A DNA stretch of 64,000 nt, from positions 1,736,001-1,800,000 of the forward strand of contig CM120643.1 of NCBI GenBank assembly GCA_051362555.1, in the 5' to 3' direction. Positions within the stretch are counted from its first letter, which is position 1. The number at the start of each line of letters is the position of its first letter. The position numbers and the translations under genes were made by a program. This document shows positions 1 through 61,430 of the stretch, in pieces. This stretch comes from Lingula anatina (taxonomy: Eukaryota; Animalia; Brachiopoda). The notes below the pieces were generated by a model. That model saw only the letters and a program-made list of their open reading frames with translations, was not told where the DNA came from and did no database searches.

Positions 1-2738
1 CGCGCCTGACTGAGTGAATTCTGATTTGGCAAATGTGGAACGTAGCCAACACCAACACAGAGATACCGTAGAGTCCTTATAGCACTCAGGACTATATGCT
101 CTTTATCTGAGCGGAGAAGTCTCACAAGTGAATGAATGCCATTGGCATTGCCAATTTCTGTCTGTTTATTTAACGCCCCACGAGATAAGACCCCTAACGC
201 CTCTGAGCCAATAAGATGCAGCTTCTCTGACCCCGTGCTCAAGAACTCGATTAGTGTCTGTACGCCAATAATACTAGCCATGGAGCGTTGCTCTTCAATA
301 TAGTCTCCAGCCTCCGCCCACAGGGCAGCCGCCGTTTTCTCCTGAACACGCTCGGCTCGGCTTTTCTTGAGCAAGTTATTCAGAGGAATCAAGGCGCCCT
401 CCTCTTTGATAGTCTTCTGAGTCGAGCTGTTATTCTCGGCTAAATACCTTATGGCATCAACAGCCGACAGCTGCAGGTCTCTGTTTTTGAGACCAGTGAG
501 CGTGATGATGTGCGCGGCACCGCCCTCCTCCACAATGGCGTTCTGGTTGTTTTTATTGTTACAAGCAATCTTACTGATGCTGATAGTCAAAGCCATGAGT
601 AGATCCTGGTTTTGCGCCTCTTCTAAGTGTCCCACCAGGGCTTGGACACACCCTGACGTGTTTCCTATGGTTCCTTGGTGGGCCTCTCCCGCCTCAGCGA
701 TAAATCCCAAGCAATACACACACTCCACAAGAACCTCAGGGTCTCGGACAGTTTGAATGACCTTGACCAAGTTGGGAATGGCTCCTGCTTGAGCAGCTTG
801 GTCTGCCAGCTCCGTGATCCGGGAAACCTCTTTGAGGACCGTAGCCGCCAACTGTACTATGAAATTATTGGACGATTTCAAAAGTCTAACCAGTGCTGGG
901 ATGCCACCAGAGGACGCCACCTGTTCCTTTACAACATCCTCAGGGATGAGGTTTATCAGACAGTGTAATGCTTCTGTCTTAGCTCTGTCGCCAATCTGAC
1001 TTTTTATGACCTTCACAATGATTGGAACGCCACCGTTATCGACCACCGCCTTCCAGTTGGGGTGCATTCCCTCGGAACTCCCCTGAGTAAGAGTACGTAG
1101 ACATTTCCCCGCCGACTCAGCCTCATCTTCAACTTCCGAAGATAGGTAGTTCAGTAAACGTTTCCAAACTGGAAGATCCTCAAAGTTCTTTTCCAGAAAG
1201 AAATCTAGAATCTCAATAAAATGCTTGTTTGCTGACAGCTCCACAACACCATGATTCTGGTTGTTGATGGCATTCACCTGATGAAACAGTAAAATGAACA
1301 ATGTACAATATATCTATTAAGGGTAATTTTTCATCAAATTTATTTTTTTTTACATAAATTTTTCTTTGACAAAGTTATTGTGTCAAACATGAAAAAGATG
1401 ATTCCAACATTTTAAAAAAGGTGATTTTCATGTTAGAAAGTGTATGTTTTTATAAGTACTATAATGAGAAATCTTTGTAACCCCCCCCCCCCAAATAAAA
1501 TAACAATACTAACAAAAATTTTTAACAAAAATAAAATAGAAATAAGTAAGCCATGTGTTGTTACTTGAGTCATCACTGTAATAAATTATTCATTTGTTTA
1601 TTTTTAGGACCTACATATAGCTTTTATAAATGCCATTACTAGAACAAGTAAAAATGAATTATATTCTCAACATAAAGATTACTTATATTTAATTTTGCTT
1701 ATCTTCCACAAAACCTGGTCACACTGCTTTCCTGAAAATCCTACCTTGGCACCAAGGGAGATAAGACACTCAACCGTCTCCTTGTTTCCATTGGTCACTG
1801 CCAGTAATAGAGGCGTAGAGCGATACTCATCTTCTGTCTCCAACTCCAACTGGTCCTTATTGGCATTGACGAACCTCTCGATGGATTTTATGAACCCTCG
1901 GAAGGCGGCATGATGGATGTGGTACCATCCGTTCTCGTCTTTCTCATTCATAGTTGCTGCTAGACGGGTCGCAGCAACTGTTTGCTGGGCTCTGGATTGA
2001 AAGAAAATGAAAAAATCAGGTCATGAAATACTTAATATTAAAAAAATACACTGTTTTCCTGAAACAAAATATATTTTAGTAATTGTTTATCAAAATTAAG
2101 ATCTAAATAACTAGTAAAGACTGCTGAGAGTCCATCAATGGAAGACAATATAAAGAAATGGAACAAAAACTGAGAGTTGTTGTTTAGACGTCAAAACCAT
2201 TCGAAATTAAAAGAGCATACACTGTATGGATTAAGGCTGCGTGCTCAACAATATTCTATCCAATATCCTTTGTAATTAAAAATATATTTGTTTTCAAAAA
2301 GTACTCAATACTTGACATGATAAATGCATAAACCATAGCACCTGACTACCAATAACAGCTAATCTCGTATAATGTGTTGGCATGTTTTCTCAAAACATCC
2401 TCAAAAACATTAACAACAACACAGGATAACAAGACCATATACATGTACACTAGATATTGTCAACAAAGATTTTTAAACATGCCCGCTTCAATAAAAACTA
2501 AATTCACTTAAGATATTAAGATACTAAGATATGCAGCACTGAGGTGAAAGACTTACAAAACTTTAAACCCTCTACTAGATATTCTTAACAAAGAGTTTTT
2601 AGACATTCTACTGCCTGCCTCAATATAAAACAAAATTCAGATTCAAATTAAGATATTTTAGCAATAATACCAAGATATGTAGCATTTGAGATGAATGACT
2701 TACAAAACTTTAAACCCTTTACCACGACAGTCAGCCAT
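1..2738 (-). CDS. Ankyrin + armadillo repeat protein (ANKAR-like), 5' part; continues off the left edge
   Basis: Coding exons 2738-2704 (MADCRGKGFKVL), 1991-1745 (AQQTVAATRLAATMNEKDENGWYHIHHAAFRG...TPLLLAVTNGNKETVECLISLGAK, ankyrin) and 1277-1 (VNAINNQNHG...NGGVPTIVKVIK...SGGIPALVRLLKS, ARM repeats). GT-AG junctions are in frame. Probable 5'UTR exon ends at donor 4481-4486. Confidence 0.8.
2450..2724 (-). repeat. Diverged ~145-bp tandem duplication spanning the ANKAR-like first coding exon end and donor
   Basis: GACTTACAAAACTTTAAACCCT occurs at 2550 and 2697, and the adjacent intron sequence also aligns. Confidence 0.8.
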
Positions 2739-3093
2739 TTTCTGTTTAACTACCAGAGAAAAACACAAATATTTCAAGTTGCAATAAAAGGCAACATTAT
2801 ACCCAGGGAGGAATTCAGGGGATGCAAAACTAATCCAAACCCCTAATAAATTACAGCTTGTATTTGTTAAAAGGCTGCAATAACTGTGTGACTGTTATTT
2901 ATATCTGTGCCCTGACAGCCAGTACACATAAACACGTGGAGGTAGTACACAGCAATATATAGTACACCAAGATCAGTCCACTTGGACACTGACTTAAACC
3001 CTGACTTGTGGGGCTTAGATTACATCGCTAGACTAAAAAAAAGTAAAAATATGTAAAAATAAAAAAAGGAAAAGGAAAAAAAAATAGAATGAA

Positions 3094-3163
3094 ATAATAT
3101 AATATAATATAATATAATATAATATAATATAATATAATATAATATAATATAATATAATATAAT
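3094..3163. repeat. (ATATA)n microsatellite
   Basis: Direct reading. Confidence 0.95.
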
Positions 3164-4610: not shown

Positions 4611-6420
4611 CAATAGTTGGGTAGACGGTGCTGCCGTCTCGCGGAAAACAAAAGAATCTACTGTAAATCATATGACAAGGCATACATATCATTTACAATA
4701 TTAAATCATTAAATTAGAAATGAAATGAATAATTGAATCCACGTGCAAGGAAGGGGTTGACAACAACTCAATTGCTTTTTTCCCCCCACAAGGAAAATTC
4801 ATTTTGGCAGGTAAATCCAATACAGACTTTTGATTAAAATCACTTTTATGATATTAAGTACATGCATACTGTACAGTAGATACAGTGTAGCATTAAAATG
4901 TTGAAATAGACAATTAAGGAAGTCAAAATTTGAATTCTGAGGCTAATTCTACAATTTTGTCCTAATGATTATAGGAAAATGAAAGGCTGTTTTTAGTGAG
5001 CAGGGATAATGGGAATACACAGCTATGTAATCAATCAAAAGAACTTAAAAATAATAAATTAAAATTAAATTTTAAAAAATTAAATTTTATGCATGAGAGA
5101 GAGAGACAGATATAGAGAAGTGAGAGGAGGAGAGGTATAAAAAACAAAGTATCATTTACTGTTATATAATTGTTTTATATTAAATTTTATTTTATATTAA
5201 AATAAACACATTTTATTGCTCCAGCAATATACTAATGTAAAAAAAGCCATTTAAAACATATACTTGAAGAATTTAACATATTATAATCATTTCCATTTTG
5301 ATGATAAACTAATGATAAAACATCACAGGTGATTTCACTAACAAGTGTTTGCTAAAACAGAATACATATACTCTGAGAAAAAGTTACAGAAATTCAAGTT
5401 TTTTTTAACAACATAATTCTTCATTTCACAACCACTTTCACTAAAATCAACTGATGCTGATTGAAATAAAATTAAATTCATGATTGATTTTCAGTTTTAA
5501 TCTGAAAAATATGTATCACATTAATTTACCATGATTGGTTTTATAATTCTATCACCTTGAAATTTTCCACTTTCTGATTCAAAAACTTAAATAATTTATC
5601 ACCACTTTATTTAGTATTCCAAATCTGGACTAAAATAATACAGATTTCATCATTTGTCTTAATACAAGAAGGCACCATTGAAGTTTTTTTTTTTTTTTTT
5701 TTTTTTTGCTTTCACTTAAGACACAAAAGAAAGCTTTAAAAGATACCACAGATGTGACATCTAAATCACTTTCCACAACCTTAAACTGCATCTTTATCTG
5801 AATAAATTAAAGTTAAACTTACTATGCAACAATGACATGTGAGGAAAAGCTCCCCAAATTGCAATAATCCATGTGCTGGCTTTCATCAGAAATAATCATT
5901 CTAACAAATACATTTGATTTCATCACGATGCAATGTACCACACAATAAATCTGTTTATTATTTTTCTGACTTATAGTCTAGATTTTTTAATCAACTGATC
6001 CCTCCATAGAAACATATGACAAAAATTTATAAGATTTCTTCAGCTAGCAAAACAGTAAATCACAAAAAAAAAATGGTATAACTGTATAAGGGAGGGTATC
6101 GGGGGTTGCAGAAGCCAGGTTCTACACAAATTCTATTTCATCTTTTTGTGAACTGCTCCACTGTAATACCATGTTTGATTGGTTGGTTAGAAGGGAGTGT
6201 TTGATTGGTTGGTTAGGAGGGAGGGCTGAATTATACTTTCTGCAATTTAATCTCAAGATCAAGAATTTTGTCGTGATGCATTATAATGATTCATATGGCA
6301 GGAAGTGGGAAGATTTCCAACTGGAATTTTTTTCTCTTCATATCTATTGTCCTGTCATGATATTACTGGTTGTCCCATCTTAATCTTCTCCAGTAACTCC
6401 ATCTATTTTTAATTGTCCTG

Positions 6421-19477: not shown

Positions 19478-20003
19478 CGAGGTTTTCAATTTAAGTGACG
19501 ATATTTACAATATGGACCTACTTTACGTGTTGTCTTAGGTGCTGGTCTATACACAAACTATGCTTGCCACAAGTTACGTTGCGATAAGTTTGTAAAGCTG
19601 AGCTGCAAGAATGGACAGTCCTCATCTGAAGAGTTTTACAGTTGTGTTGGCACCAAGGCAATAACTTAAATTAAACTTTTTTGTTACAACACGGGATAAC
19701 TGAATGCAGTGACAAGTTTTGCTTCATTTCTGTTTCAGGATACAATAATTTTGTAAGGTGGGGGTGGTGGAATGCTGTGCTTAGAGTGCTACCATTAGCA
19801 AAACGAAGAAATGCACGGCATCTGAACACAAAGAATACACCATTTTCAGAACAAGTCAAATGTACAGACAAAAAACAGAAAATAAAGGTGCAAAAAAAGG
19901 TCATTTTGTCAATTTTGATGCAATAATAAATAATGCTTATAATAGCACTGTCAGTCAACACTGAATTTTAATCATGCACAACAGGTAACATGGTCAATAA
20001 CAG

Positions 20004-22731: not shown

Positions 22732-25700
22732 TCATTTTTGCAAATTTGCCGCAAACTCTCCAGAACTGTTCTCGTGAATTCCCGCAAAATACATATACAT
22801 AATGCTTAACAGCATAATGACCATCAATTTTTAATAATAGAATATTAGTAACATGGACATTCAGAAAACGTGACAAGCAAAGGTCTTCAGGATCATGGAA
22901 CTTGAAAGTCACGCCTTGAAAATTCCAATAAGTGACAAATTAAATTTTCACAAAAAAAAAACTGCTTAACTGCCAGAAAAAAATTACCAAACAGGCTGCA
23001 TTGCCTACTGAAGCTGTATTTTAGCCCTATGTTTCTTTCCTGTAAGTTTGAAAACAGTAAGTGACATGGTTTTTCTTAAATGGTCATCATGGGAGCAGTG
23101 CCCAAAATAGGGGTTTCTTCAAATTTTGATGCAATATTACATAATGTTTAACAGCATAATGACCATCAATTTTTAATCATAAAATATTAGTATCATGGAT
23201 ATTCAGAAAATGTGACTAGCAAAGGTCTGCAGGCTCATGGAACTTCAAAGTCACATCTTAAAAATGCCAAAATGTAAACAAGACAGCACTGTTCTGAAAT
23301 GGGTTTATTTCCATTTTTAACATAAAACAAAGTAAACAGTTTGTTGCCATTTTTATATGACCAACTAAGAAAATTGATGAGATGGGGAAATATCAAAAGA
23401 ACAGTGTTAAATGTCCAACTTCCTCCATTCTGAGATTCTGAACATAGTGGATAATTGAATCTGACAAACTGCAATGATATGAGTTTATTTCCATTTTTGA
23501 CACTTTATTACACAATACACGATAACAAGTTTATCATCGTATTTACATAGTCAATTAACAATGTTGTAAAGAAGCAGGGAATATCAAACAAACACTTTTA
23601 TGTATCTTATTAGTTAAATAATAAGACTATTAACATGCCTAAGAATTGAATCTGAGGAAATATGAAAAAACAGCATAACTTCTAAAATAAAGGCCCGATT
23701 ATGCTGATTTTCGAACTCAACCTGCGTTTTAGTTAGTTTGACTACTCCTGTGAGTAACTCCATACCAAAAAATATTTAGACCAAAATGACGGCACGGAAC
23801 TGTTAATTCTAGGTGCTCTATTCCAACTCATGAAAGTCTTGGTATTGTGGTATTGAGTTATTCCCAAATTGAAACGTTGCGCAACAAAAATGTATTTATT
23901 TACTTAACATCGTCTGGTTTTATGGAAGAAATCGGCATGAAAGTAATTACAAAAGAGTAAATCAAGTTTAGAATATAATTTTTATTCAACAATCAAGTTC
24001 AATGATGAACAGTTACATTCAATTCCAATAGGATTTGCAAGTTATCATTAATGAATTACTATATGTAAATGCAATGAATTAAAAAACGGTAGTTTTACTG
24101 AAAGTTTATACTTTCCATTCCCGTCTTTATCATCTCACAACGAAACGCAAATAGCCCATCAATGTACAAGATAAACAAATTTACCAAAGTAATTCATACA
24201 GAAAGAGGCACTGAAGCCAAATTTTGATGGTCAGAGTTTGGTACCAGATGCTCTCAGCCCGTGGGGGAAAAACCCGTCTAAACCCTTCTTGGGGAATGCC
24301 GAGAAAGTGCCCACGCCCGGATAACAGTTTTTACAGCGCCTTACAAGCTCAAGAATATCGTCCCGTTTTAGACAGCATGGCACGACTGAATTAACTTTCG
24401 TGACTACAAACTATTCTCTATATAAACTATACAAGATAAACATATTTACCTAAATATTTCATACAGAAAGTTGCCCTGAAGCCAACCCGAGACATTTACT
24501 AGAGACTTAACACGAAACTAGTTTAAACTTTATCCAGGGGGGCAAAGCCATAAATAAAGTCGCTCAGTCCTGAAATTTCTAACGATAACATAAACAGACA
24601 ATAAACAGATTCAAGTAATATAACTATAACTCGGGTATCTCAATGATTTAAACTAAACTAAGACATAACTCTGGATAAAATACCTAAAACTATAAAATTT
24701 CTAAATTTTCATTTTGCCCTGAAATCGCCACTACCTATATGATACAAGCTGAGAATAAAGCAAGCTTGCTTCGAATTATTTCGCATCTCACATCACTGTT
24801 TGACCGTCCATGTAAGTTTCAATTTGAATTTGGTTGATCCGGAGAAAAGGTTCATATATGATGAAGTGGATTTATTTGTCAAGTATAACACTTGAGAAAA
24901 TCTGAATGTTAGTAATGTGATCTCTATCTTGAGAGATGATGGCATCTCTCAAGTAGAGCAGACTGTGCAAAAAATAATGAAATATTTTCACATGTAAAAT
25001 ATTTCATTGCAGATTTTGCACAGGCTATCAATGTAAAATCTCTTCATGTAAAAGCGTTTACATGAAGTCAGATTTATCAAAGATGTGAGGGTTTATTAGC
25101 AAGGTTAGTGTGCAGGTTAAGACCTTCTCAAATGCCTTACTGACAACTCCGCATCATCAAAAGCACAAATTTCAGAAAAGACTACTGCACTAAGATTGAA
25201 ACAAAACACAGACGACCATAAGTGGTGGAAATGCGAATGTTTTTGTGAGCAAAAATCTTTCTGCACTTAGAATGTAAACAGCAACTGGATATTCAATTAA
25301 AATCATTAACATGATTATTATTATTATTATATCTGAAGAGGTAGACTTAACACATTTTATACATAACCAAGCCTCATCCTATTCAATTGGAATGCATGGA
25401 ATTAAGAATGATCATTCAGACCTTCAGCCATTGTAATAAAACGTCACTTACACAAGTGAAAAACAAAACTTTGTACAATTACACTCGACAAAAGTTTGTG
25501 ACCCTTGAAACCCAAATATTTTTATAATCCAAAAGCCTTGAGTCCATTATTAGATTGCATTCCTATTATACTCAGCATATTGCTCTCCATTTCCATTGCA
25601 CATTCTCTATATTTGTTAGCAGAACAAGTTGTATCCTTCAAAACCAAGACTGCTAGGACGTCCAATCATCAATGAAAAGTGGTTACAGGGCTCCTTGCTA

Positions 25701-27510: not shown

Positions 27511-27652
27511 GGAAAGTAAGGCGGTCCAAACAGCCAGTAAGGTGAAAAGTTTATGGCACGGACTACAACTAAAAGTAAATCATTTTAGTATATTGCTCTC
27601 CCCAATAACACGGGTTACCTTTCAGGATTTTCCATCTCATTGAAACACCATA

Positions 27653-29925
27653 TGACAGGACTCGCTGGACGTTTCCCCATTGCAGCAACCTCGTAGACAA
27701 ACCATGGCAGGACTCGCTGGACAATTCCCCATTGCAGTCACCTCGTAGACGGACCATGGCAGGACTCGCTGGACGATTCCCCATTGCAGTCACCTCGTAG
27801 ACGGACCATGGCAGGGCTCGCTGGACGATTCCCCATTGCAGTCACCTCGTAGACGGACCATGGCAGGGCTCGCTGGACGATTCCCCATTGCAGCCACCTC
27901 GTAGACGGACAATGGCAGGACTCGCTGGACGATTCCCCATTGCAGTCACCTCGTAGACGGACAATGGCAGGACTCGCTGGACGATTCCCCATTGCAGTCA
28001 CCTCGTAGACGGACAATGGCAGGACTCGCTGGACGATTCCCCATTGCAGTCACCTCGTAGACGGACCATGGCAGGGCTCGCTGGACGATTCCCCATTGCA
28101 GCCACCTCGTAGACGGACAATGGCAGGACTCGCTGGACGATTCCCCATTGCAGTCACCTCGTAGACGGACAATGGCAGGACTCGCTGGACGATTCCCCAT
28201 TGCAGTCACCTCGTAGACGGACCATGGCAGGACTCGCTGGACGATTCCCCATTGCAGTCACCTCGTAGACGGACCATGGCAGGACTCGCTGGACGTTTCT
28301 CCCGTGCAGCCACCTCGAAGACAGACCATGGCAGGACTCGCTGGACGCTTCCCCCGTGCAGCCACCTTGTAGACAGACCATGGCAGGACTCGCTGGACGC
28401 TTCCCCCGTGCAGCCACCTCGTAGACAGACCATGGCAGGACTCGCTGGACGCTTCCCCCGTGCAGCCACCTCGTAGACAGACCATGGCAGGACTCGCTGG
28501 ACGCTTCCCCCGTGCAGCCACCTCGTAGACAGACCATGGCAGGACTCGCTGGACGCTTCCCCCGCGCAGCCACCTCGTAGACAGACCATGGCAGGACTCG
28601 CTGGCACCAAGGATTGGTCGTAGTAGCTAAGTATAGATGTGGGCCCTCTTCTTGCAGTTGTGTTCTGTAAACAGAAATAAAAACGAGATTAGATTTCTTT
28701 CATTTCTTAAACTCCACTTCCAAAAAGAAAAAGATTCCATACCTTATTAAGGAGTGCAGTCGAAGTCCCACAGGTGGCGCTCATCTTCTATTTCCTGTTA
28801 ATTGCAGTCACCTCGTAGACAGTCCATGGCAGGACTCGCTGGACGATTCCCCATCGCAGTCACCTCGTAGACAGACCATGGCAGGACTCGCTGGACGTAT
28901 TGCAGCCACCTCGTAGACGGACCATGGCAGGACTCGCTGGACGCTTCCCCAGTGCAGCCACCTCGTAGACGGACCATGGCAGGACTCGCTGGACGCTTCC
29001 CCAGTGCAGCCACCTCGTAGATGGACCATGGCAGGACTCGCTGGACGCTTCCCCAGTGCAGCCACCTCGTAGATGGACCATGGCAGGACTCGCTGGACGC
29101 TTCCCCTGTGCAGCCACCTTATAGACAGACCATGGCACGACTCGCTGGACGCTTCCCCAGTGCAGCCACCTCGCAGACAGACCATGGCAGGACTCGCTGG
29201 ACGCTCCCCCGTGCAGCCACCTCGCAGACAGACCATGGCAGGACTCGCTGGACGCTCCCCCGTGCAGCCACCTCGCAGACAGACCATGGCAGGACTCGCT
29301 GGCACCAAGGATTGGTCGTAGTAGCTGAAGTGTAGATGTGGGCCCTCTTCTTGCAGTTGTGTTCTGTAAACAGAAATAAAAACGAGATTAGATTTCTTTC
29401 ATTTCTTAAACTCCACTTCCAAAAAGAAAAAGAGAACATACCTTAAGGAGTGAAGTCGAAGTCCCACCGGTGGCGCTCATCATCTTCTATGTCCTGTTAA
29501 CAGAAATAAAAAACGAGATTAGATTTCTTTCAATTCTTAAACTCTACTTCCAAAAAGAAAAAGATTACATACCTTATTAAGGAGTGCAGTCGAAGTCCCA
29601 CAGGTGGCGCTCATCTTCTATTTCCTGTTAATTGCAGTCACCTCGTAGACAGTCCATGGCAGGACTCGCTGGACGATTTCCCATCGCAGTCACCTCGTAG
29701 ACAGACCATGGCAGGACTCGCTGGACGTATTGCAGCCACCTCGTAGACGGACCATGGCAGAACTCGCTGGACGCTTCCCCCGTGAAGCCACCTCGTAGAT
29801 GGACCATGGCAGGACTCGCTGGAAGCTTCCCCCGTGCAGCCACCTCGCAGATAGACCATGGCAGGACTCGCTGGACGCTCCCTAGTGCAGCCACCTCGCA
29901 GACAGACCATGGCAGGACTCGCTGG
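27653..29925. repeat. 52-bp GC-rich minisatellite in three blocks (27653-28605, 28800-29300, 29632-29925) within a higher-order repeat
   Basis: Unit CCATGGCAGGACTCGCTGGACGATTCCCCATTGCAGTCACCTCGTAGACGGA; about 18 copies in block 1. Confidence 0.95.
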
Positions 29926-29986
29926 CACCAAGGATTGGTCGTAGTAGCTGAAGTGTAGATGTGGGCCCTCTTCTTGCAGTTGTGTT

Positions 29987-30910
29987 CTGTAAACAGAAAT
30001 AAAAAGGAGATTAGATTTCTTCCATTTCTTAAACTCCACTTCCAAAAAGAAAAAGATTACATACCTTAAGGAGTGAAGTCGAAGTCCCACCGGTGGCGCT
30101 CATCATCTTCTATGTCCTGTTAACAGAAATAAAAAACGAGATTAGATTTCTTTCATTTCTTTAACTCCACTTCCAAAAAGAAAAAGATCACATACCTTAA
30201 GGAGTGCAGTCGAAGTCCCACAGGTGGCGCTCATCATCTTCTATGTCCTGTTAACAGAAATAAAAAACGAGATTAGATTTCTTTCATTTCTTTAACTCCA
30301 CTTCCAAAAAGAAAAAGATTACATACCTTAAGGAGTGCAGTCGAAGTCCCACAGCTGGCGCTCATCATCTTCTATGTCCTGTAAGCAGAAATAAAAAACG
30401 AGATTAGATTTCTTTCATTTCTTTAACTCCACTTCCAAAAAGAAAAAGATTACATACCTTAAGGAGTGCAGTCGAAGTCCCACAGGTGGCGCTCATCATC
30501 TTCTATGTCCTGTAAGCAGTAATAAAAACGAAATTAGATTTCTTTCATTTCTTAAACTCCACTTCCAAAAAGAAAAAGATTACATACCTTATGGAGTGTA
30601 GTCGAAGTCCCACAGGTGCCGCTCATCATCTTCTATGTCCTGTAAAGAAAAATAAAAACGAGATTAGATTTCTTTCATTTCTTTACCTCCACTTCCAAAA
30701 AGAAAAAAGATTACATACCTTAAGGAGTGTAGTCGAAGTCCCTCCGGTGGCGCTCATCATCTTCTATGTCCTGTAAGCAGTAATAAAAACGAGATTAGAT
30801 TTCTTTCATTTCTTAAACTCCACATCCAAAAAAAAAAAAAGATTACATACCTTAAGGAGTGTAGTCGAAGTCCCACAGGTGGCGCTCATCGTCTTCTATG
30901 CTCTGTAAAT
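29987..30910 (-). repeat. ~131-bp tandem repeat, each unit a 52-nt micro-exon plus ~79-nt GT-AG intron; 7 units
   Basis: Minus strand reads CAG|GACATAGAAGATGATGAGCGCCACCTGTGGGACTTCGACTGCACTCCTTAAG|GTATGT...CTAAT...polypyrimidine...CAG. Confidence 0.85.
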
Positions 30911-31558
30911 ATAAAGAAAATAGATTTTTTTACATTTCTCAAACTCAAAAAAGATTATATACCTTCAAGAATCGCCATAATCGAGTTCTGTTTACAGAAC
31001 GAAAAACGGACTAATGTCTTTTCCTACTAATGTCAGTACTCTGCAGTTAGGCTTACCTTTAAGGGGTTTCCATCTCATTGAAGCACCTTATGGCAGCCAC
31101 CTCGTAGACAGACCATGTCAGTGCTCGCTGGACGCTGCCCCCTGCCCCGCTGCCTTGGAAGTCTGTGAACAGAAAGAAAAAAAAGTTAATGAGTTTTCTA
31201 ACCTTATCTAGCAGTTTGCAGTCTGCTTCCTGGACCTGTAATAAAAAAGAAACCTGGAAAGCATGCAATAATGCAATGACACTACGACTAGCCCACGACA
31301 GCAAAAAGGTGAAGTATCCTGCGAAGATCCCTGAGCGACGATTCCTCGTGGGGAGAAGCGAAGGTTGTAGCTGGCCAGCTTAGAGAAACGCCGAATCCAC
31401 CGTTTAGACGTCTGCGTGTGCAATATGGCGAAGAGCGATGCGTTGACGTAGGATGAGGAAAGATTCGGAGAAATGCGAGTCGACTCACGTGTCCTTTGTG
31501 CTTGATTCAGGACGCAGCACACGACGTCCTTCCTGTTGCTGTAGATCTGTCCGCAGTT

Positions 31559-34776: not shown

Positions 34777-36422
<1,646 letters not shown>

Positions 36423-40685: not shown

Positions 40686-40687
<2 letters not shown>

Positions 40688-40759: not shown

Positions 40760-40763
<4 letters not shown>

Positions 40764-43800: not shown

Positions 43801-46800
43801 AGGGGAAAGCCTTTGTTACATAGTAAACCACACATTTGTTATGTATAAATTGCCTTACTAATCTCCCAGGAACGGCAGACTACTGGGGGTTATGGGGGGG
43901 GGGGGGTGTCTTTATTACACAGTAAACCACAGAGTTGTATATAAATAGTCTCCTCATCCTCCAGGGATGGCAGACTGCTGGTGGCGGGAGGAAAGTCCAG
44001 GTTTCTCCATGTGTGGACACTGGACACCAGGCGTCTACTGAGGATAATACAGCTTCCAGCCAAGGTCACCTCAGTGAAGGAGATGGAGTTCTTGCCTGAT
44101 AAGTTTGATGCTGGTTCCAGTCAGGTATGCTTGGTTTATTTTATATTATTTACTATGAAAGAGCTATGAAGAAGTTTGAAAGAATTGCACTCAATTTTGC
44201 TCGGAGAATTATTATATGGTGTTTTTCCAAAATTTTTCTAATTTCAGAATGAAACCATTTAAATTATTCAGGCAATTCAAAAGTAATACAATTTATCATA
44301 TTCACAATTCAAATATGAAACCATTTTAAATTTATCATTCTTACAATTCAAATATAGGACCATTTTCATTATTTTCACATTTATTCTGAAACAATTATTT
44401 TGAAATGCATCATTTTCTCCCTACCCCACATTAATTTTTTCTCTCTCCTCTCCCCTAGGTCCTGGGTGTCCTCAGTCAAGACGGCATTATGAGGTTTATC
44501 CACATCCACACGTGTAAACTGCTGTTTGACCTGGGCAGTGTAGGGGACAGAATCAACACCATGGCTATGTCTCCTACTGGGCACCACGTGGTGGGAGTGA
44601 TGGAGGACGGGAATCTTAATATATACAGTGTACAGGCACTGACTGCAGAGTTAAATAAGGCAAGTGATATGATAATATATACAGTGTACAGGCACTGACT
44701 GCAGAGTTAAATAAGGCAAGTGATATGATAATATATACAGTGTACAGGCACTGACTGCAGAGTTAAATAAGGCAAGTGATATGATAATATATACAGTGTA
44801 CAGGCACTGACTGCAGAGTTAAATAAGGCAAGTGATATGATAATATATACAGTGTACAGGCACTGACTGCAGAGTTAAATAAGGCAAGTGATATGATAAT
44901 ATATACAGTGTACAGGCTCTGACTGCAGAGTTAAATAAGGCAAGTGATATGATAATATATACAGTGTACAGGCTCTGACTGCAGAGTTAAATAAGGCAAG
45001 TGATATGATAATATATACAGTGTACAGGCACTGACTGCAGAGTTAAATAAGGTAAGTGATATGATAATATATACAGTGTACAGGCACTGACTGCAGAGTT
45101 AAATAAGGCAAGTGATACAGGGGAGGATTGAGACGTCTTCTGGGTCTTCTGGAAGACTGTCAGTTTTTCAAGGTTATACCGTCGGGTATCTAATTTTCTC
45201 TGTTGGAAGACAGTCAGAAATTGAGGATGGATCAACAAGATAATTTGGAAGACTGTCAGAAAATATATCTGGATCAGCCCCTGTGATATGGATGCTCTTT
45301 GTCTTATGAAGTTTAAGGATGCTTTTTATCTAAAGACGTCCTTGTTTATCTGTATACGTTGACACTATGTTCATCCACAAGACTTTCCAAATATCCTGCT
45401 GAATGTTTCATTTTTTCACTCAATGGTAAATCCAAATAATTTTTGGAATGAGTTTATAACTGACTTTGATACAGCTGCAACACATACAAGAAAGTATCTT
45501 GTGAAAAAACAAAGACAGGACAGTGCTGAATAGTCTTGATGTGTGAGATTATTTTTGTAACACTGTTAATTGACTTATTTCCAGCCTCCTCCCCCGTTGG
45601 TGTCAGTGGTATCATCTCAGAGGAAGCAGGAGACTGGAGACGTCACGTCATCGTCGCAGGCAGACGTTACCCAGGGGAAACGAGCTTCCAGGTTAAAACG
45701 TAAAGCACGTTTGGCTCAGGGCAGTGAGGTGTCGGCTGTGGATGTGAAACCAAAGAAAACTAGTCATGAACAGGTAGGTAGGGTGGGGTGAGGTGAGGTG
45801 AGGTGAGGTGAGGTGAGGTGGGATGGCTGGGGTAGGGTAGGGTAGGGTAGGGTGGGGTGTTGTGTGGCAGTCTTTGTGTGCTTGAGTTTTAACCTTGGGG
45901 TTAAGATGTGGATGAGAATTCCTTTACCTTTGGAAAATTTGCTTCTCCTTTTTCTGCATGCAGAATAAAATGTGAAACCTAATTGGAATTTGTATTACTT
46001 ATTCATAAATGTGAAATGCAGTGTAAGAATGGGACTTTTTTCATTTTAATTTGTAAACATTTTCTATTTTTTTTTATCCCAGCCCAAACATTTACCTTGT
46101 ATTCATGTAGTATTATGCCTCTGCGATCACTATGTTACTCTGGAAATCCGAGCTCTTATACGTCCACTAATTGTTGTTACATGTAAATGGGTGTATTTTC
46201 TCAATTTGATATCGTAACAGGTTGGACTACCTGAGGGCCTGAACATGGATAAACTGATGGCTATATTGAGGGGCTATGGAGAGTATCCAGCTAAATATAG
46301 GTAAGTAAACTGATGGCTATATTGAGGGGCTATGGAGAGTATCCAGCTAAATATAGGTAACAATATATGGCCATGTGGACATAGAATTTGATGTGTAATA
46401 TTGAAATTATTATGAAATAAAAATGTGGGGCTTGGTTTTGAAAATTTTCTGGACTATTAAAGCTGCCCCAAGTGTCACCTGTTTATGTGTTAATAATCTT
46501 ATGTGTTCATTCCTGCATTTGATATGTTTAGAATTCTCAGTTTTTTTTTTGTGAGATAGACAGTTCTTTAAATTTTAAACAGAAAAAAATGAGTTTCAAA
46601 AGAATAGTTAAGGTACTTTTGGTTTATGTAAAAAGAATTATAAGCTAAATACATACATTATTTTATGTCCAGGATGTTTATCTGGCGTTCCATCTTGCGG
46701 CTACCAGAGAACCACGCGGCGTATGCCTCCCTAGTAGACAAGGGCACGCACCCAGCGTATGAAAACATACATGAGAAGTTTCCTATTAAGAGCAGAAAAC

Positions 46801-49800
46801 TGTTGAGAGTGCTGCAGAGGTCAGATTTTACAAACATTTTGGTTTGGACCGTATATTTTTGCATTGTTTTCATGTAAACAATTATGAAACTAAAAATTAA
46901 ATACTTTCATAATGAAAGATATTGTATTGGAAACAGTTAATAATGGTCATTTTTATCTTCTAAGTCATCTTCAATTTTGTATGTGTTGTGTTAAAGAATT
47001 GCAAAATAATCAGTATTTCTTTCTGTACATGATATTTGAAATGAACATTTAAAAAGCACAGTATCTATTAATTGGAATTCTACAGGTGCATTACCTCATG
47101 TTTCTGACACACTTTCAGAACCCTGTCGGCGCTCTCTCACTGGTCGGCCATCTTTGGTGAGATGGACTACCTGCCTCTCCTGACCTTCCCCTTTGTGAAG
47201 CTGTTCCAGAATAACCAGCTGGTGCTGTTTGAGATCATAGCAACTGTCCTAGGTAAGGCATTATACATACTGTGCTCTCTCATTACAGTCTTAATGTCAA
47301 AAGTTGTTGGTGTTAAGTTATAAGTTGATAAGAGAAATGAATTAAGCATAAAAGGTATAGACATTTTATTGTATTGTAGTCTTTTAATGTCTCATTTTGT
47401 TTTGGTTTTGTTTAAAATCGGATCTTAGAAATGTATTAACCAGGAAGAAGTCGGGATGAAAAGATGGATGATATTAGATACCAACTTTTTTCCTGTGACT
47501 TAATTTAGTAGCAGTGGCAGTTTGATAAGCAGCTGGTAGAAACTGGAGACTTGACTCTTGTTATCCAAGTTTTGTTACATAAATCAGAAAACAAAAGCAT
47601 CACTGGTCTATTTCAGTAAACTGGTGTCAGCACTGGTTTGAGTTCTTCCCCAACCCTCCTATCAATGTTCTGGGGATGGTGGAGAATGTCCTCGCCTTTC
47701 ATGACAAGGAGCTACTCCAGCATTTTGTCAAGTACGGCGTCACCTCACAGGTCAGTGAGCTCATTCCCAAAGAAACTATCGTTTTACGAAGACTGATCCA
47801 ACTCTGTGGATACCTTTGCTGAATTCAATCAGGTGTAAAGATTAACATGCCTCCACTTGTTTCCATTTTACTTGTACAACTACCGGCTTTTCTGTATTCT
47901 TCTTAACGCCAGGAGGAGGCATGTTAATCTCTTAATCAGATTGAATTCATTGCTACTGAGATCAAGCTCTAAAAGAGATGAGTCATTTGGCGGGGTTGCC
48001 CTGACACCTAATAAAACCTTAATTGATCTATATTCATGTGAGTCTTAATTGAAACAAGTTTAGTTTTTGCATTGAAGTAAACATTTTTCTCTTCAATTCA
48101 ATTTTGACTGTTTATCTTGCTGTTATCGTGAAAATGAAAAATTCTTTCTTTATTTCTTGTGCTTCTGTTTACTTTCAAAGTAAGTTTAATATCTATTTTT
48201 CTATCTAGACAGTTTTAAAGGAGATCAAGTCTTTATGTAGTCAGCTTTATCTTCAATTTGAAAAGAGATTATGTGTCTTAATTATCTGAATTGTAATTGG
48301 TATTATCAATCAGTCCCATTATTTTGTCAGATCTATGCGTGGCCCGTGCTGGAGACGCTTTTCTCTGAAGTACTTACCAAGGACGAGTGGTTACGACTGT
48401 TCGACAACGTGCTCAGTAACCACCCCGCATTTCTCCTCATGTGCGTGGTGGCATACTGCACGGCATGCAGAGGACCTTTGTTACAGTGTATAGAGTTTGA
48501 TGATTTTAAGGTATTTTGTGTGACAGTGTATGTGTATGGTAAAATAAATAAATTTTAGTCACTGAATTTAATGTTTTGAATAATTGTCGCATTAATTGTA
48601 GTTAATAAGAGTAATAGTCAGATATAAGAACTTAAAATTCAAAGTATTACTACACCAACCTTTTTATGGTGCAGTTGACCAATGATTGATAAGTGTCATC
48701 CTTTTCACTCTTAATATCTCAATATTTCTATACACTCTGTAATTTTTTTTTTGATAAACAAAATAATGTTAACAAACCACCTTTCCCCCCCTCCTCAGTA
48801 CTTCTTCCACCACCGTAATGCCGTGGACATAGGGGACGTGATTAAAGAAGCGTATAGGATTCAGGAGACCACCCCACCTGACGTCCACCCTGAGAGGATG
48901 CTGGACACGTTCCAGCCACTGACCAGGGGACAGTACCCAGTGTTCAATAAATATCCCAAGTTTATTGTGGACTATCAGGTACATTTGTGTCAAGTGATGT
49001 GATTGGTTCTGTACGTTTGTGCCAGGTGTTGTGATTGGTTCTGCAAAGATGTATCATATTGAGTAAGTCAGGGGGAGATGGGTCTCTCACGTCTCACATT
49101 ATAATGTGACAGCTGCTTACTTTTAGATTGTCGGTGTGAACATGACTGCAAAGTTTGCAGTGCATTCATGAATTTATCCAGAGTGTGCTTATTTTAACTA
49201 TTCTTTTTACAACAAACTACTCTCTATCCTCAGTTTTATTTCTAAGGGTGCCTCGCACTATGTAAAAAATTCACTCTGATAGGTTTCTTTGATGGAGTTC
49301 CTATATTTTACCCACAATAGATGTTGTTTGTTTAATTTTAAGCTTAATTTTATTTTGAATCCCAATCTATTCAGAAAAGATAAATGATTAGCTAAAAATT
49401 ACCTGAGGATAAAGTGCAGCTTTAATTGATATTTTAAACTTTGGTTTTAGATAAATGTTTAAAATCGTGATCTTATGAATAAGAGTTAAATTCAATCTAG
49501 GTTCAAGAAAGAGAAAGAATTCGTGAGGAAGAACTGGAGTACCTGCGACAGCGGCAGGTGTCTCTTGAGCTCCAGAAAGAGACTGAGCGTCGTCAGCAGG
49601 AGGAGGCTGCATGGTACAGACAGCAGGAGCTGCTTCTGGAGGCGGAGGAGAAGAGGAGGAAGATGATCTCAGAGGAGGAGGAGAAGCTTTATGAACAGAG
49701 GTCAAGGTAAGAATTATTATTAGGACAGACAAATGAATGGTGTCTCACTGTAAACAAGATCAGCTTAATCTTAGGGTCATTAGGTAGAAAATATAGGTGG

Positions 49801-51191: not shown

Positions 51192-52398
51192 GTAAGTTTT
51201 CGTACAGATAAATAGATGTCAGCAGCAGTGTCATGTATGTAGATGTTTAAAGGGTTTGTCCTGGTCATTTCTATCTTTTGTAGCAGTATGTAAATGTGCT
51301 ACAGGTTGAAATATTACACTTATCACATTGACTTTTATTGAGTAACTAGAACATTATGAAAATGTTGTAATTAAAGAATTTAGAACCAGTTGTACAACCA
51401 CTATGTGTCCCTGTGATTGATTTTGGTCATTGATGTTGATTACTGTAACAGTGACATGAATGCTCAGGGTGGCAACTGTTTTTTCAAGTTTTCTGCAGCA
51501 TTGTGCTCAGCAGTGTCATCTCAGTCTCAACTAGTGCAATATGTAGTCACATCTCACTCTGTCACTCTGTCTCACACTGTGTCATGCTATTTCCAATGTA
51601 TCATCAACAGCCTGTGATGTTAACCACTTGCCCCACTGCCAATGCTGGCAGAAATTGGACTCTGGTGGCCTGTAAGTTGAAAAGCATTGGTACAGACTGC
51701 ATCATTGTTTCACGTTTCCCATAGTGCCAGTATATACATGTGACATTAAATATCACATCTGTGATAGCCAAGCAGGTAGCTGGTTTTGTTTTCATAGTTC
51801 ATCGACCGTTTGCATTCATCAGGACAGGCTGATTGAAGAGTATGTGTTATAGAGGATCAGTTTTGGGGGATAAAACTAGTTAGTACCACCAGCCAATGCG
51901 CTGGCAGTTTTCAAGGTTTTAGAGCTGGCCCCTCTTGTACGGTTCCAACAGCTCGGCATTCTGGCGTCGGATGGAAGTCACTGTTACTGCTTCTCCTCCT
52001 TATATATTATATGTACAGACAATAAAAAGGCAAATATATTGAAGACTGTAGGACTGTATGATTTGGTTATTATTCAAAAACGAGTTAACTGTGCTAGGAT
52101 TTTGATGTCTGAACAGAGAGTCAATAAAAAAAAGAGAGGGGGAGAGATCAGGATCTGATACTATGGATGTATAAATGTAAAGCAGAAAATCAATCTTGAA
52201 ACAACAAACTGAAATGCTCTAGGACACGTAGGTTTGTGTTTTGGGGGGATAAAATCAATGCCATCTAAAATAGGAAAACATGCTCTCTAAAAGCTTTTAT
52301 AGAACAATGAGCAGAACTAAAATAGTTGTTTCTGGATATTGATGGACTTGATGTGAAGGTACACATTTGTTAAGTATTTACATGTGTAGTTACTTTTT

Positions 52399-52453
<55 letters not shown>

Positions 52454-52849
52454 AACTGTTCCCAACTTTTGCAAGGTTGCTGTTATTTGATTGCTATCTT
52501 ACTCATTTCATTATTCTTGTTCACTCACAAAAATTAAAAATCTGTTGAGAAACCATCTCAGTTTTATTAAGAAATTTATTACCATTTATTTTCTTTAGAA
52601 ATTTGTTACCATTTATTTCAAACATTACAAAATTAATGGGACATTGTCTTAAGAAATACAATAAGTTTTTGTTCAAATCTGTTAAGTGCATGTTAACAGT
52701 GTGTGTAAAGTAAATACAGATACATGTCAATACTTTGAAACAACAGATGTGTAGGAGAAAAGCAAAGAATACAGGAAATTTGTTTTTACGCCAAATATTA
52801 GCAGTTACTGATTTAGAATCATATTGCATTTACAGCGAGTATTTCAACC

Positions 52850-57588: not shown

Positions 57589-60500
57589 TTACATGTACTT
57601 GTATTTTTTAATGCAATGGTTAAGTTTGTCTGCCACAAGAACATGTCCATCATCAGTTGTAGATATCCCCAGTGGCTGATGCAGCTTGTCGCCAGTGCTC
57701 TCAATGCAAGACACAAACGTGCCGTCATACTTAAAAACTTGCAGTCTGTTGTTACGGCCGTCTCCAACAATGATGTTCCCATGTCGGTCAGTGCATACCC
57801 CAGATGGACTCTTGAACTGACCTTTGCCCTTTCCCTCGAACCCTATCTGATGCTTAAAGGAAGCGTGGCGGTTGAGAACCAAGACGCAATTCCTCTCCTG
57901 GTCGCACACCATGATATCGTCGTCTTGGCCAATGGCAATGGTTCCAGGCCGCTTGATGCCGCGGAACGTAGAGGTGATGTCACCTTTCTTGTTGAAGATC
58001 AGGAGCTTCTCGTGGCAGTAGTCTGAGACGATGATGTCGCCATGACTGTTGGTACCAACACAAACCCCTCCGCTCTTCTCACCATTGCATATAGGCATGA
58101 CCTGCTTGAGGCGGCCGTCGAAATCAAAAATTAAGATACGATCAGCGTACAGCTGAGAGGACTGGATGTAGGCCTCAGGGCAGATGATTTCTTCTTTTGC
58201 GGCATTGACACACACGTCACTGCTCCCTGTCAGCTGACCTTCTTTTTTCTCCTCCATGGCAGCGAGGTGAAAATGGCGGACGTACTTCCCGTCTTTGTCA
58301 AATATCTGCACTTTGTTGAGATCCAGGACAAAGTAGTTCTCACCCACAGCATGGACATGACGAGGACGGAATAACTGACCTGGACCATCTCCCTCCTCGC
58401 CGAACTTCATTACAGGATTATTGCTCTGGACCAGGATGGGGACCTCTTTTAAGGTTTGGTCATGGAAAACCAGGCGACATTTGTGAGGGCCAGAGATCTG
58501 TGGCCTGAAGGTAAAGCTGTAATTGCCATTCCCCCTTTCCTCTGTGCTGACACCACATACCTTGTCTCCAAATGGGTCCAGGATGTCCAGTGCCACTTTA
58601 AGGCACGAGAGAGGCTTGTCTTCGTAATTGGCTATCGCGACCTTGACACAGGATTCCAAGCTAGCCGTGGCACTTTCTGGCTCCATGTCCACCTTAGCAG
58701 GCATCCATTTTGAGTTGCGGAGACTTCCCATTCGGTTCAGCCCACCTCGAATCTCCTGCAAGGCATCGAAATCCTTAACAGAGAATTGTGGGTATTCTAT
58801 AGTGACTTCCTTGGAGCTGCAGTTAGTGGCGTCTTCACCCTCTATGTTGTTTGCATCTTCCTGCTTGGCGGTGTCAATCAGGTCTTGAAGCTTGCCTTTC
58901 TTGATAGTATGGCTGATTTGCTCTGAAGTGGAGGTAAGCTGATTGTAGTGCATCTCTGTCTCGATGATCATGTCCTTGAGCTTTGCTGCAATATGGCCGT
59001 GTTGGGTTCTCAAATTTTCCTTCATCTTTTGCCGGCGTTCTTCAATAGCTAGGCAGCACTTGTCCAGGGAGGTGTCGATGTCGGCCTCTGTCATCTTCTG
59101 CAGGCCGTTGAGGGAGCTGAGCTGCACTTGTAATGCTGACAGGATGTCTTCTTCTGACTGCATGAGTTGGCGTAATTTAGTTAACCTTTCCTGTAGTTTT
59201 TTAGTGAAGTTCCCCTTCATCACTGCCACCTCAGTGATAACGTGACCCTCACTCTCACGATGACTGAGAATGGTGCAGTCTCGACAGATGGCAGTCTCGC
59301 ACTTGGAGCAGAAGAAGGACAGCGGTTGGTTGGCATGGGTTTGGCAGCCATCTTGATCTTTTTGTCGTTTGGTCATTCCCATCAGTAGTTCCTCCATTTC
59401 CATGATATAGAAGTTAGTCTGGAGATGGGTGGCTCCACCTGTGTGTAATAAATGTGATGAATTACTATATATCAATGGTCCATCTCAACTTGATCACAGA
59501 ACACAATAATTCTTCAGTGACAAGGAAATTGAGCAAGTAGACTAGTCCGTTTTTCCTGCTTTGATTCCCATTGTGCACTGTAAGTAGGAGAGAGGTCCAG
59601 CCGACTACATAGCTATTTCAGAAGTTGATAATTCACTGGAAACTTACATATGATGCCATCTCATTTTCATTATTTAGAAAATTACTTTGATACATGTGTT
59701 CCACCTTGTGATATAAGGATAGCTAATCAATGTTGATTGATAGCCAGTCTTAAGTAATTGGTAAAAGCAGTCAGACTGTGATTGATATGGAAACAAACCT
59801 GCAAGCTCACTTGCAACACTTTAAAGTTTGTTAATTGGTCCTGGGGATCTCTGGAGGGAGATATGAGACTTGGATAATAAAAGTATTTAGAATACATCCT
59901 ATGTCAAATAGAAGGAATTTTTGTTTACATATGTATTGCAATTATTATTATTATTTTTGTCTTTTGTTCTTTGATTATCCCATTATTTGATTATTATTTT
60001 GTGGAAGCTATATGGATTTTTAAAGCACATTTTATTTTTGTAATTAAGTGGGATTTAAGTTTTAGAAGAAACACATAGGACACCAGTTATAAATATAGTG
60101 TTAATTACACAGGTGTGACAGTCATGGGGATTTCCTGATTTGAGGGACTTTATTCTGTCCAAACAAACACCTGCATGTAAAAAGTAAATACATCATTGGC
60201 TGGAGTAGCTCTAACACTTGCCAATTTAGCCAAATGTTAACATTAACTTAAATTGGCTTAACAAAAGAGGGTTGATTTGACTTGTTTTAGTCAAAATTTA
60301 ATCATTTGGAGAAAAAACTTGATAGAAGAGTAGTGATTGGTAGCTAATGCCTCCTTTACACTGGACGGCGTCCTTTCTGCGACCATGAAATTTGGCATCG
60401 CTGTGGTCTTAATAAGGAGGCACGAGCATTAATTTTGTATCAGAATGAATGCTCAATGATCGGCCAGTTGTCGGCACGTAAAGCATTATAATTTTTTAAC

Positions 60501-60828
60501 TCTCAAATGGGGCCGTACTGCTGGACGCAGAAAGGACGCCGTCCAGTGTAAAGGGGGCTTAAGTAAAAAAAAAAAAGTAACACTACCCCAGATTGGACTT
60601 TACACAAACCCAGCCACAGAGGAGTAGACACCCTATTTATTTACCTGGAGGCAAGCCGACCTCTTGTCGACATGTTGGGCACTTAGCCTTCCCTTTGGAA
60701 GTCTTCAGTCCATCAATACACTTCATACAGAAGGTGTGGTGGCAGGGCAGGAGTTTGGGCTGGTGTTCCTCGTGGTCATACTGCTCAAAACACACCTGAC
60801 AGCTTAGGAGCTGGTTCTCCACGTCCAT
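57589..60828 (-). CDS. TRIM2/TRIM3-like E3 ligase (RING, B-box, coiled coil, filamin, NHL), 677 aa, 2 coding exons
   Basis: Exon 60828-60645 encodes the RING (CQVC...LPCHHTFCMKC...CPTC). Exon 59438-57589 encodes a B-box (CQTH...FFCSKCETAICRDC...H), a filamin repeat (GNGNYSFTFRPQISGPH) and NHL repeats (GKGKGQFKSPSGVCTD...NNRLQVF). Confidence 0.92.
60348..60559. mobile_element. PIF/Harbinger-like MITE
   Basis: TIR CCTTTACACTGGACGGCGTCCTTTCTGCG / CGCAGAAAGGACGCCGTCCAGTGTAAAGG, with TAA on both flanks. Confidence 0.75.
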
Positions 60829-61430
60829 GGTACTGGAATATATGGAACAACTATATTAGGTGTGTTTATGGGGAAATATATATAATAAATACAGGAGCTG
60901 GTTCTCTACGTCCATGGTACTGAAAGACATAGGACAACTGCATTAGCCATATTTGTGGGAGAAATATTATATAATAGATATACAGGAGCTGGTTCTCTGC
61001 GTCCATGGTACTGAAAGACATAGGACAACTACATTAGCCGTGTTTGTGGGAGAAATATATATAATAAATACAGGAGCTGGTTTCTTTCTATGTCCAAGGT
61101 ACTGAAATATAGGGAACAATTACATGAGTCATGTTTGTGGGAGAAATATATATAATATACTGACAGGCAATGAAAACGCATCATTTATTTATCAAATTAT
61201 ATTTTTAGTTCCTTTGGCACATTAAGAAATAACAGTTTACGTGTGAAATATGACCCATTATTCAGACACACAAGGTGAAATAAAGGTCAGAAAAGATTAA
61301 ATTTTTTACTTATTTATATGGTTGGAATCGATTCTCGGTAAAAAAGTTCAAGAAAGTTTTTTGCTGTGTTTTCATTGACTGTCAGTATAGATATAAGAGC
61401 TGGGTCTCCATGTCCATGGTACTAGAACAC
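60806..61430 (-). repeat. ~87-bp tandem duplications of the TRIM acceptor plus start codon (4 tandem copies including the real one, plus 1 dispersed)
   Basis: AG|TACCATGGACG.AGAGAACCAGCTCCT at ~60806-60835, 60893-60923, 60984-61014 and 61072-61105; a degenerate copy at 61397-61425. Confidence 0.85.

Follow-up and report, generated by a model that had tools for sequence, protein, structure and literature searches.

We analysed a 64,000-nucleotide stretch of the genome of the brachiopod Lingula anatina (assembly GCA_051362555.1, contig CM120643.1, positions 1,736,001 to 1,800,000 of the forward strand), referred to here as the window. Five of its genes, namely an ANKAR-like gene, an ANKRD60-like gene (the name is carried over from an earlier, first-pass annotation), NDUFV2, TBC1D31 and a TRIM-NHL gene, contain short local duplications that overlap a splice site or a stop codon. 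The first-pass annotation had counted at least eight such duplications over functional boundaries and listed eight. All eight were recovered in place by Tandem Repeats Finder (TRF), self-BLAST and two calibrated scans, with 73 to 100% identity between copies:

2449..2722, minus strand: donor duplication in the ANKAR-like (armadillo/ankyrin) gene; 2 copies, offset 125, 76% identity
6346..6474, minus strand: stop-codon duplication in the ANKRD60-like gene; 2 copies, offset 66, 94% identity
15684..18377, plus strand: donor minisatellite of NDUFV2 exon 6; 73 bp x 36.9, 99% identity
42263..42490, plus strand: old acceptor duplication in TBC1D31; 2 copies, offset 115, 73% identity
43811..43984, plus strand: old acceptor duplication in TBC1D31; 2 copies, offset 99, 76% identity
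44617..45117, plus strand: GC-donor array in TBC1D31; 56 bp x 8.9, 99% identity
46250..46360, plus strand: young donor duplication in TBC1D31; 56 bp x 2 (55 bp plus one spacer base), 100% identity
60806..61157, minus strand: array over the acceptor and ATG of the TRIM-NHL gene; about 89 bp x 3.9, 85% identity
61394..61436, minus strand: fifth, detached copy of the TRIM acceptor and ATG

Cut-offs for the scans came from shuffled sequence, in which the best score was 38 (four gapped shuffles) or 41 (five ungapped shuffles). Each of the eight duplications beats at least one shuffle maximum; the pair at 43811 does so in the gapped scan only (57 gapped, 38 ungapped). According to the gene models, a splice site lies inside the unit in seven duplications and a stop codon in the eighth; two of the seven sites are predicted from the sequence. 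Donor units consist of 19 to 62 nt of exon followed by the start of the intron, and acceptor units of 52 to 60 nt of intron followed by 20 to 61 nt of exon. The duplications had been described as centred on the boundaries. This did not hold, since the boundary, although inside the unit, is off-centre; its position varies from unit to unit, and its distance from the breakpoint is not fixed. The four youngest arrays are made up of a segment repeated with a spacer of 7, 3, 1 or 9 nt that resembles adjacent sequence. Donor units run into the intron and acceptor units keep their own polypyrimidine tract; because the units hold intron bases and not next-exon bases, the duplications were DNA-level events.

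The AG or GT/GC dinucleotide is retained in all 36 NDUFV2 spare sites, in the 8 spares of the GC array, in both TBC1D31 spare acceptors and in the 4 TRIM spares. In the gene models, a frame free of internal stops is obtained only if the exon-side copy is used, which bears out the proposal that this copy preserves the protein. Premature stops result from read-through of the three coding donors or from use of either TBC1D31 spare acceptor. Scattered variants occur among the copies in the window, and some are common to several copies. The span of identities also agrees with the earlier suggestion that the duplications range in age from young to old.

The longest array lies at the donor of NDUFV2 exon 6. 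Its 73-bp unit comprises 62 nt of exon and 11 nt of intron (a 66-bp segment repeated with a 7-nt spacer) and supplies 36 spare donors. The NDUFV2 model has an open frame of 248 codons and matches Pfam family PF01257. Donor scores, here and below, were obtained with a matrix built on the other sites of the window. The exon-side donor outscores that of the last copy (9.4 versus 6.3), and the difference is made by the spacer.

Reads from three other DNA runs (X1, X2 and X4) and one RNA run (X12) were aligned to the first three copies of the NDUFV2 array only. The unit exceeded the depth of its flanks severalfold in all three DNA runs. X1 yielded a 103-nt cyclic contig at a depth of 2632.9, compared with 97.8 and 95.1 for the flanks (about 27-fold). 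In X2 the unit had a depth of 552 to 767 against a flank of 126.8 (4- to 6-fold), and in X4 a depth of 106.6 against flanks of 16.9 and 22.7 (5- to 6-fold). These ratios are rough, and contig depth is not strictly a copy number. The array is a variable-number tandem repeat (VNTR) whose copy number differs between animals: 37 in the window and approximately 27, 4 to 6, and 5 to 6 elsewhere. The right flank of the array is carried by X1 exactly as in the window.

About 6% of the X12 run was read, and 66 reads aligned at NDUFV2. Thirty reads pass from the first donor to exon 7; the median loose part of these 151-nt reads is 53 nt, so most of them start in the unique part of exon 6. For eleven further reads that reach exon 7 the copy of origin is ambiguous, and 22 reads connect to exon 5. 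RNA depth was about 51 in exon 6 and 4 past the donor.

Near NDUFV2, X4 differs from the window by 19 changes and 4 gaps in 286 bp, with 255 unaligned letters before 15370. The X4 unit is identical to that of the window although its flank differs by 8% (P of about 0.08 on its own). Among the RNA variants of exon 6, none of 21 third positions is affected in the repeated part, versus 4 of 13 in the unique part (Fisher P = 0.015). These observations, made at one locus and after the fact, suggest that the array and the coding copy have been homogenised across haplotypes; the invariance of the repeated part could instead reflect splicing constraint near the donor.

Four of the duplications lie in TBC1D31. 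The model comprises 859 codons, is open at its 3' end and has no internal stops. One exon is 100% identical to the annotated Lingula anatina protein P0067, and from residue 200 on, 652 of 660 positions of the model agree with it. At both donor duplications, the exon junctions of P0067 fall on the exon-side site (the GC donor at 44659 and the donor at 46300), and the alignment with a human TBC1D31 isoform bridges all four duplicated boundaries. The two acceptors are at 42430 and 43965, with spare acceptors at 42317, whose exon part has a 10-nt deletion, and at 43870. The unit of the GC-donor array consists of 43 nt of exon and 13 nt of intron and repeats the GC donor AAG|GCAAGT, except that copy 8 has the GT donor AAG|GTAAGT at 45051 (score 12.3 versus 8.3 for the real GC donor). 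At 46300 the exon-side donor reads GTAAGT and outscores the spare, GTAACA (10.4 versus 5.7); here too the spacer makes the difference.

RNA depth at acceptor 42430 was 10.2, compared with an expected 9.8 if the exon-side site alone is used and 16.0 if the spare site is used. The corresponding values were 0.35 (0.46 and 6.7) at acceptor 43965 and 2.1 (1.7 and 6.5, the latter for the second donor) at the GC donor. In the intron bin after the 46300 donor, the depth was 0.54, against 0 for exon-side use and 4.15 if the second donor were always used. The exon-only expectation fits the bin depth at three of the four sites. The exon-side site dominates in the RNA of both NDUFV2 and TBC1D31.

Both old TBC1D31 acceptor pairs are traversed wholly or partly by contigs of X1 and of a further DNA run, X3, in which contig record 10 spans 43811..43984. 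An X3 contig ends at 44647, where a repeat would break assembly, and another is continuous to 46304 with 14 letters left over. From this last contig, the 46250 pair is probably absent (single-copy) in X3, which would then carry an unduplicated allele.

Further observations were made around TBC1D31. The window has two GC-AG introns with AAG|GCAAGT, at 19114 (NDUFV2) and 44659 (TBC1D31), both on the plus strand. X3 has 17 nt in place of a 54-nt stretch located 63 bp downstream of a TBC1D31 exon. Exonic diversity between animals reaches about 10 variants in 124 bp at 44488-44611, alongside the 8% intron divergence in X4; some of the high diversity at 41300-51300 and 15330-15680 may stem from cryptic species that share one label. 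From 51191 to the end of the window (64000), the final 189 residues of P0067 have no coding sequence. The rest of TBC1D31 probably lies outside the window, in which case the TRIM-NHL gene would sit within a long TBC1D31 intron, on the other strand; alternatively, the 3' exons of TBC1D31 are missing from the assembly.

The remaining three duplications lie in genes on the minus strand. In the ANKAR-like gene, the exon-side copy occupies 2574-2722 and the spare 2449-2575; the unit has 19 nt of exon and 108 to 130 nt of intron, and both donor copies read TTT|GTAAGT. Only the 5' part of the gene is modelled in the window, with an open frame. In a quick tree of 30 of 66 hits, its protein belongs to a clade of lophotrochozoans (support 98) but does not fall among the molluscs, annelids or nemerteans. 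The duplication at this donor is present as first described, but its coding role is doubtful: the exon at 2704-2749, with its donor at 2704, probably belongs to the 5' untranslated region (UTR), since relatives start at an MNExDE motif in the next exon.

The ANKRD60-like unit takes in the final 54 bases of the coding sequence, TGA stop (6421-6423) included, and 9 nt of 3' UTR; the spare copy lies within the 3' UTR. The model has 577 codons, a single terminal stop and a weak ubiquitin-like Pfam match. The TRIM gene has RING, B-box and NHL domains. Its unit, at the predicted acceptor of the first coding exon, comprises about 60 nt of intron and 27 nt of exon with the ATG. Start and stop codons had been named alongside splice sites. 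One stop codon is indeed duplicated, but the TRIM ATG merely sits 4 nt behind an acceptor. The ATG is kept upstream in three of the four spare TRIM copies (60919-61421, minus strand), and the nearest spare copy would provide a 19-codon upstream open reading frame if its acceptor were used.

The repeat class to which these duplications belong is already known. Tandem exon-intron boundary copies, termed 'mirages', have been described in amphioxus for Adh3, the globins BflGb6 and BflGb9, troponin C and PGBD5 (PMC3087553, PMC3902484), and the human F7 IVS7 VNTR is a further example. The window is a dense case in another phylum. Amphioxus and Lingula arrays are alike in lying at a donor or acceptor, many with AG/GT (PMC3087553, PMC3902484). 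Amphioxus mirages have units of 10 to 160 bp, 81 to 100% identity and haplotype differences in copy number, affect several genes per genome and reportedly leave splicing unaffected, and the same pattern is seen here. Our units measure 56 to 125 bp, and five of the eight duplications are 85 to 100% alike, whereas the three older pairs, at 73 to 76%, fall below the published mirage range. Differences from amphioxus are the lophotrochozoan host, the occurrence in five neighbouring genes within 64 kb, the 37-copy array, and the stop-codon and GC-donor cases. In NDUFV2 the first (coding) copy equals the array consensus, whereas the edge copies of BflGb6 are reported to lie outside homogenisation (PMC3087553). 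The same paper cites somatic instability of Adh3.

Human boundary-spanning VNTRs are found in F7 IVS7 (37 bp x 5-9), the interferon-inducible gene 6-16, CBS IVS13, LAMIN B2 and PDGF (PMC1557585). They share with NDUFV2 a first unit over the exon-intron boundary, identical pseudo-donors behind it, polymorphic length and use of the most upstream donor. They are isolated and donor-side, whereas the Lingula duplications include acceptor-side and stop-codon cases and are locally dense. In F7, only a perfect-consensus pseudo-site could compete with the real donor (PMC1557585); copy 8 of the TBC1D31 array fits that description and follows a GC donor. Human segmental-duplication genes also have variable internal tandem repeats at exon-intron boundaries, and in young paralogues these often give rise to new introns or alternative transcripts (PMC2812944). 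The Lingula genes with repeats are ordinary and apparently single-copy, and they showed no new intron or isoform. Among the papers listed by our literature search, which was poor in subscription journals, none tested boundary enrichment genome-wide and none described such repeats in a brachiopod.

Taken together, we favour the view, with a probability of roughly 0.6, that these are real boundary-spanning mirage duplications and minisatellites which arise as near-neutral by-products of DNA repair and persist because splicing keeps to the exon-side site. In a first step, break repair or template switching would copy a segment of 55 to 130 bp in the DNA itself, as suggested by the four young joins, which carry 1 to 9 extra bases resembling neighbouring sequence. 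End joining by polymerase theta with templated insertions likewise gives head-to-tail duplications with short join insertions from nearby sequence (PMC7368036), although those duplications, in C. elegans repair mutants, are 1 kb to 1 Mb long; the spacers of 1 to 9 nt could also be later mutations spread through the array. In a second step, a duplication spanning a boundary would leave the full exon and its first splice site intact and be tolerated, whereas one wholly within coding sequence would be purged. Tolerance would follow from the choice of the outer site, which was seen for NDUFV2 and TBC1D31 and, for donors, corresponds to the most-upstream selection in F7 (PMC1557585). Two copies would then permit unequal exchange or slippage, leading to expansion, contraction and homogenisation, to which the copy-number differences and shared variants point. 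Arrays no longer turning over would decay.

We compared the number of boundary-spanning duplications with that expected by chance. Outside transposons, microsatellites and a putative long noncoding RNA (lncRNA) array, the window holds 14 local duplications, of which 8 cross a boundary, 1 starts right at a donor and 5 lie elsewhere. The six nonspanning duplications and the lncRNA array are as follows:

48979..49043, plus strand: abuts a donor without spanning it; 32 bp x 2, the first base being the GT of a TBC1D31 intron
6172..6223: control duplication away from boundaries; 26 bp x 2
24165..24485: control duplication with no boundary known; 56-bp copies 265 bp apart
44290..44366: intronic control duplication; 39 bp x 2
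52562..52618: AT-rich control duplication; 27 bp x 2
61944..62236: control duplication; 56-bp copies flanking an inserted high-copy element
27617..30965, minus strand: compound array in a putative noncoding gene; ten 52-nt mini-exons with AG/GT ends in a 131-bp exon-plus-intron unit, mixed with 52-bp repeats

The first-pass annotation had stated that few comparable duplications lie away from junctions; with six nonspanning duplications against eight spanning ones, this is only partly so. It had also set the lncRNA array aside, but that array is itself built of splice units, here whole exon-plus-intron units where the other loci have half-exon units. Within the putative noncoding gene (27617-31600, minus strand), the mini-exons are near-identical and several 52-bp repeat blocks are related to an upstream exon. 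A search of Rfam gave no matches in the window, which ruled out a snoRNA host gene as an explanation for the putative lncRNA.

The null model used 124 boundaries and restricted placement to viable positions. About 25 putative UTR, lncRNA and fragment splice sites in this set were placed by eye, as were three masked elements (10500-10680, 15185-15315 and 60350-60560). The 14 duplications exclude microsatellites (period up to 6), the lncRNA array, a short repeat in a masked element (7493), eight repeat clusters in a transposon-like family (19855-24000, 52850-54700) and four short TRF rows under the shuffle cut-off (5061, 10320, 39859, 63362). The eight spanning duplications compare with 2.1 expected (P = 2.5e-4), and a GC-matched null (2.5 expected; P = 5e-4) did not abolish the excess within the window. 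Allowing spanning copies a twofold survival advantage gave P = 0.010 to 0.016, and a threefold advantage P = 0.05 to 0.07; counting only the five boundaries in RNA-checked genes gave P = 0.045 to 0.075. Because the window was chosen for its pattern, these P values do not stand for the genome. Longer survival of boundary duplications would come about because one copy is held by coding constraint. In the four old pairs, exon parts differ by 0.134 and intron parts by 0.218 (Fisher P = 0.055), and this ratio of 0.62 is the size expected with one constrained and one free copy. The boundary excess most likely combines longer survival and the selection of a conspicuous window with some degree of real bias in formation or amplification.

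Several observations weigh against near-neutral origin and passive survival as the whole explanation. Four of the nine young duplications span a boundary, against 1.1 to 1.3 expected (P = 0.015 to 0.027), and survival bias should have its smallest effect among these. The three counted arrays with at least four copies, plus the lncRNA array, all sit at boundaries, and formation or amplification may be boundary-targeted. On the side of splicing, bin depths place four X12 reads inside the NDUFV2 array, and the depths exceed prediction at the 46300 donor (0.54 where 0 was predicted) and at the GC donor (2.1 against 1.7), so that read-through or spare-site use could amount to up to about a tenth at donors. 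For TBC1D31 the RNA evidence consists of depth only, junction tables having been swamped by high-copy elements at about 42640-43200 and 45118-45290. The RNA runs were chosen by species label; they come from animals other than those that gave the DNA, whose copy numbers may differ, and cover five of the eight boundaries (those in NDUFV2 and TBC1D31).

The most serious rival, though one we regard as less likely, is that duplications form or amplify preferentially at exon edges; their products would still be near-neutral mirages, and only the cause of the excess would differ. By one route, exons in a highly polymorphic animal would act as islands of homology between divergent intron haplotypes, with recombination or repair between homologues stopping at the edge and re-annealing out of register. 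By another, breaks would be coupled to transcription or splicing, as in the R-loop idea of the first-pass annotation, whose boundary-targeted mutation stands as a possibility: the excess inside the window is there, but it weakens once survival bias and the choice of the window are considered. Besides the overall and young-only excesses, this rival gains from the ninth junction array, in the putative lncRNA, and from the duplication whose first base is that of a donor. Intron haplotypes diverge strongly (X4 near NDUFV2, X3 in TBC1D31), the lack of variation in the repeated stretch of NDUFV2 exon 6 suggests exchange between alleles, and mirages are suggested to be possibly general in cephalochordates (PMC3087553). 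It is weakened by its reliance on a single window selected for its pattern among very many, by the loss of strength under a two- to threefold survival advantage (P = 0.01 to 0.07) or with RNA-checked boundaries only, and by boundaries that fall anywhere within units, with no fixed breakpoint distance. A bolder form, in which divergent intron haplotypes make exon edges genome-wide hot spots of tandem duplication and the arrays draw the coding copy into concerted evolution, is more speculative still.

Far less probable is the proposal that selection retains the arrays as ladders of decoy splice sites through which mRNA output is adjusted, for example by sending a share of transcripts to nonsense-mediated decay. 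Spare sites are often intact with scores equal to those of real sites, copy 8 of the GC array has its consensus GT donor, and a few RNA reads do enter the arrays. Human 6-16 and CBS make use of the closest pseudo-sites (PMC1557585), and many human loci show an association between splicing and tandem-repeat length (PMC10078293). However, spare sites are little used in RNA, their use being at most minor, and it would give frameshifts. Copy number ranges about sevenfold, from approximately 5 to 37, and one duplication is apparently absent in X3. Old spare copies carry deletions and decay at about the neutral rate, diverging like unselected DNA. In one case the duplicated boundary is a stop codon, for which a decoy makes no sense, and the genes are functionally unrelated. 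We therefore do not uphold the decoy proposal.

The association with splice sites could also suggest an RNA step, in which spliced or partly spliced RNA serves as the template for the copies, through reverse transcription or RNA-templated repair. This we think slightly less credible again. None of the eight units contains an exon-exon join, and a spliced-RNA template was rejected on this ground; repair from unspliced pre-mRNA, which would leave no mark, may still have occurred. Assembly or sequencing artefact is the least plausible reading of all: three arrays are 99 to 100% identical between copies and the 46250 duplication was unconfirmed in another run, looking absent in X3, but the severalfold depth of the junction-spanning NDUFV2 unit in three of three DNA runs largely refutes it for NDUFV2, copies carry scattered and partly shared variants, diverged pairs differ by 15 to 27%, and other runs' contigs cross the two TBC1D31 pairs wholly or in part.

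The window contains further repeats and gene fragments. An element of about 170 bp is present in five copies (7406-7561, 19997-20162, 38237-38398, 45118-45290 and 62012-62190) and at very high depth in DNA contigs; one copy directly follows the last copy of the GC-donor array, and another lies between two 56-bp direct repeats. One transposon-like family (19855-24000, 52850-54700 and 27186-27510) has internal tandem repeats, opposite orientations and 67 to 93% similarity. An isolated 3' fragment of DLD (dihydrolipoyl dehydrogenase) at 34780-36416, minus strand, matches PF02852 and human DLD; exons 36345-36416 and 35598-35687 were confirmed, a third was placed near 34780-34843 by eye, and the fragment is truncated upstream by a transposon piece at about 36420. 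The window also encodes a Derlin, with an open exon model.

With these results, a repeat class that has received little study and was described in lancelets and in scattered human genes gains an example from a brachiopod. The DNA evidence reveals large variation in copy number, and the RNA evidence indicates that up to 36 identical spare donors are mostly ignored by splicing. The consensus GT donor 392 nt behind a GC donor in TBC1D31 offers a natural test of splice choice. The arrays are polymorphic markers inside genes and call for caution in gene annotation. If exon edges are hot spots arising from divergent intron haplotypes, there would be a mechanism for mirages, their abundance would be predictable from heterozygosity, and an intronic minisatellite would be homogenising part of an exon of an essential respiratory-chain gene. 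Should the boundary excess prove genome-wide and stem from a formation bias, it would bear on the evolution of introns and exon edges, including the intron-gain model of PMC3087553, and on the concerted evolution of coding sequence.

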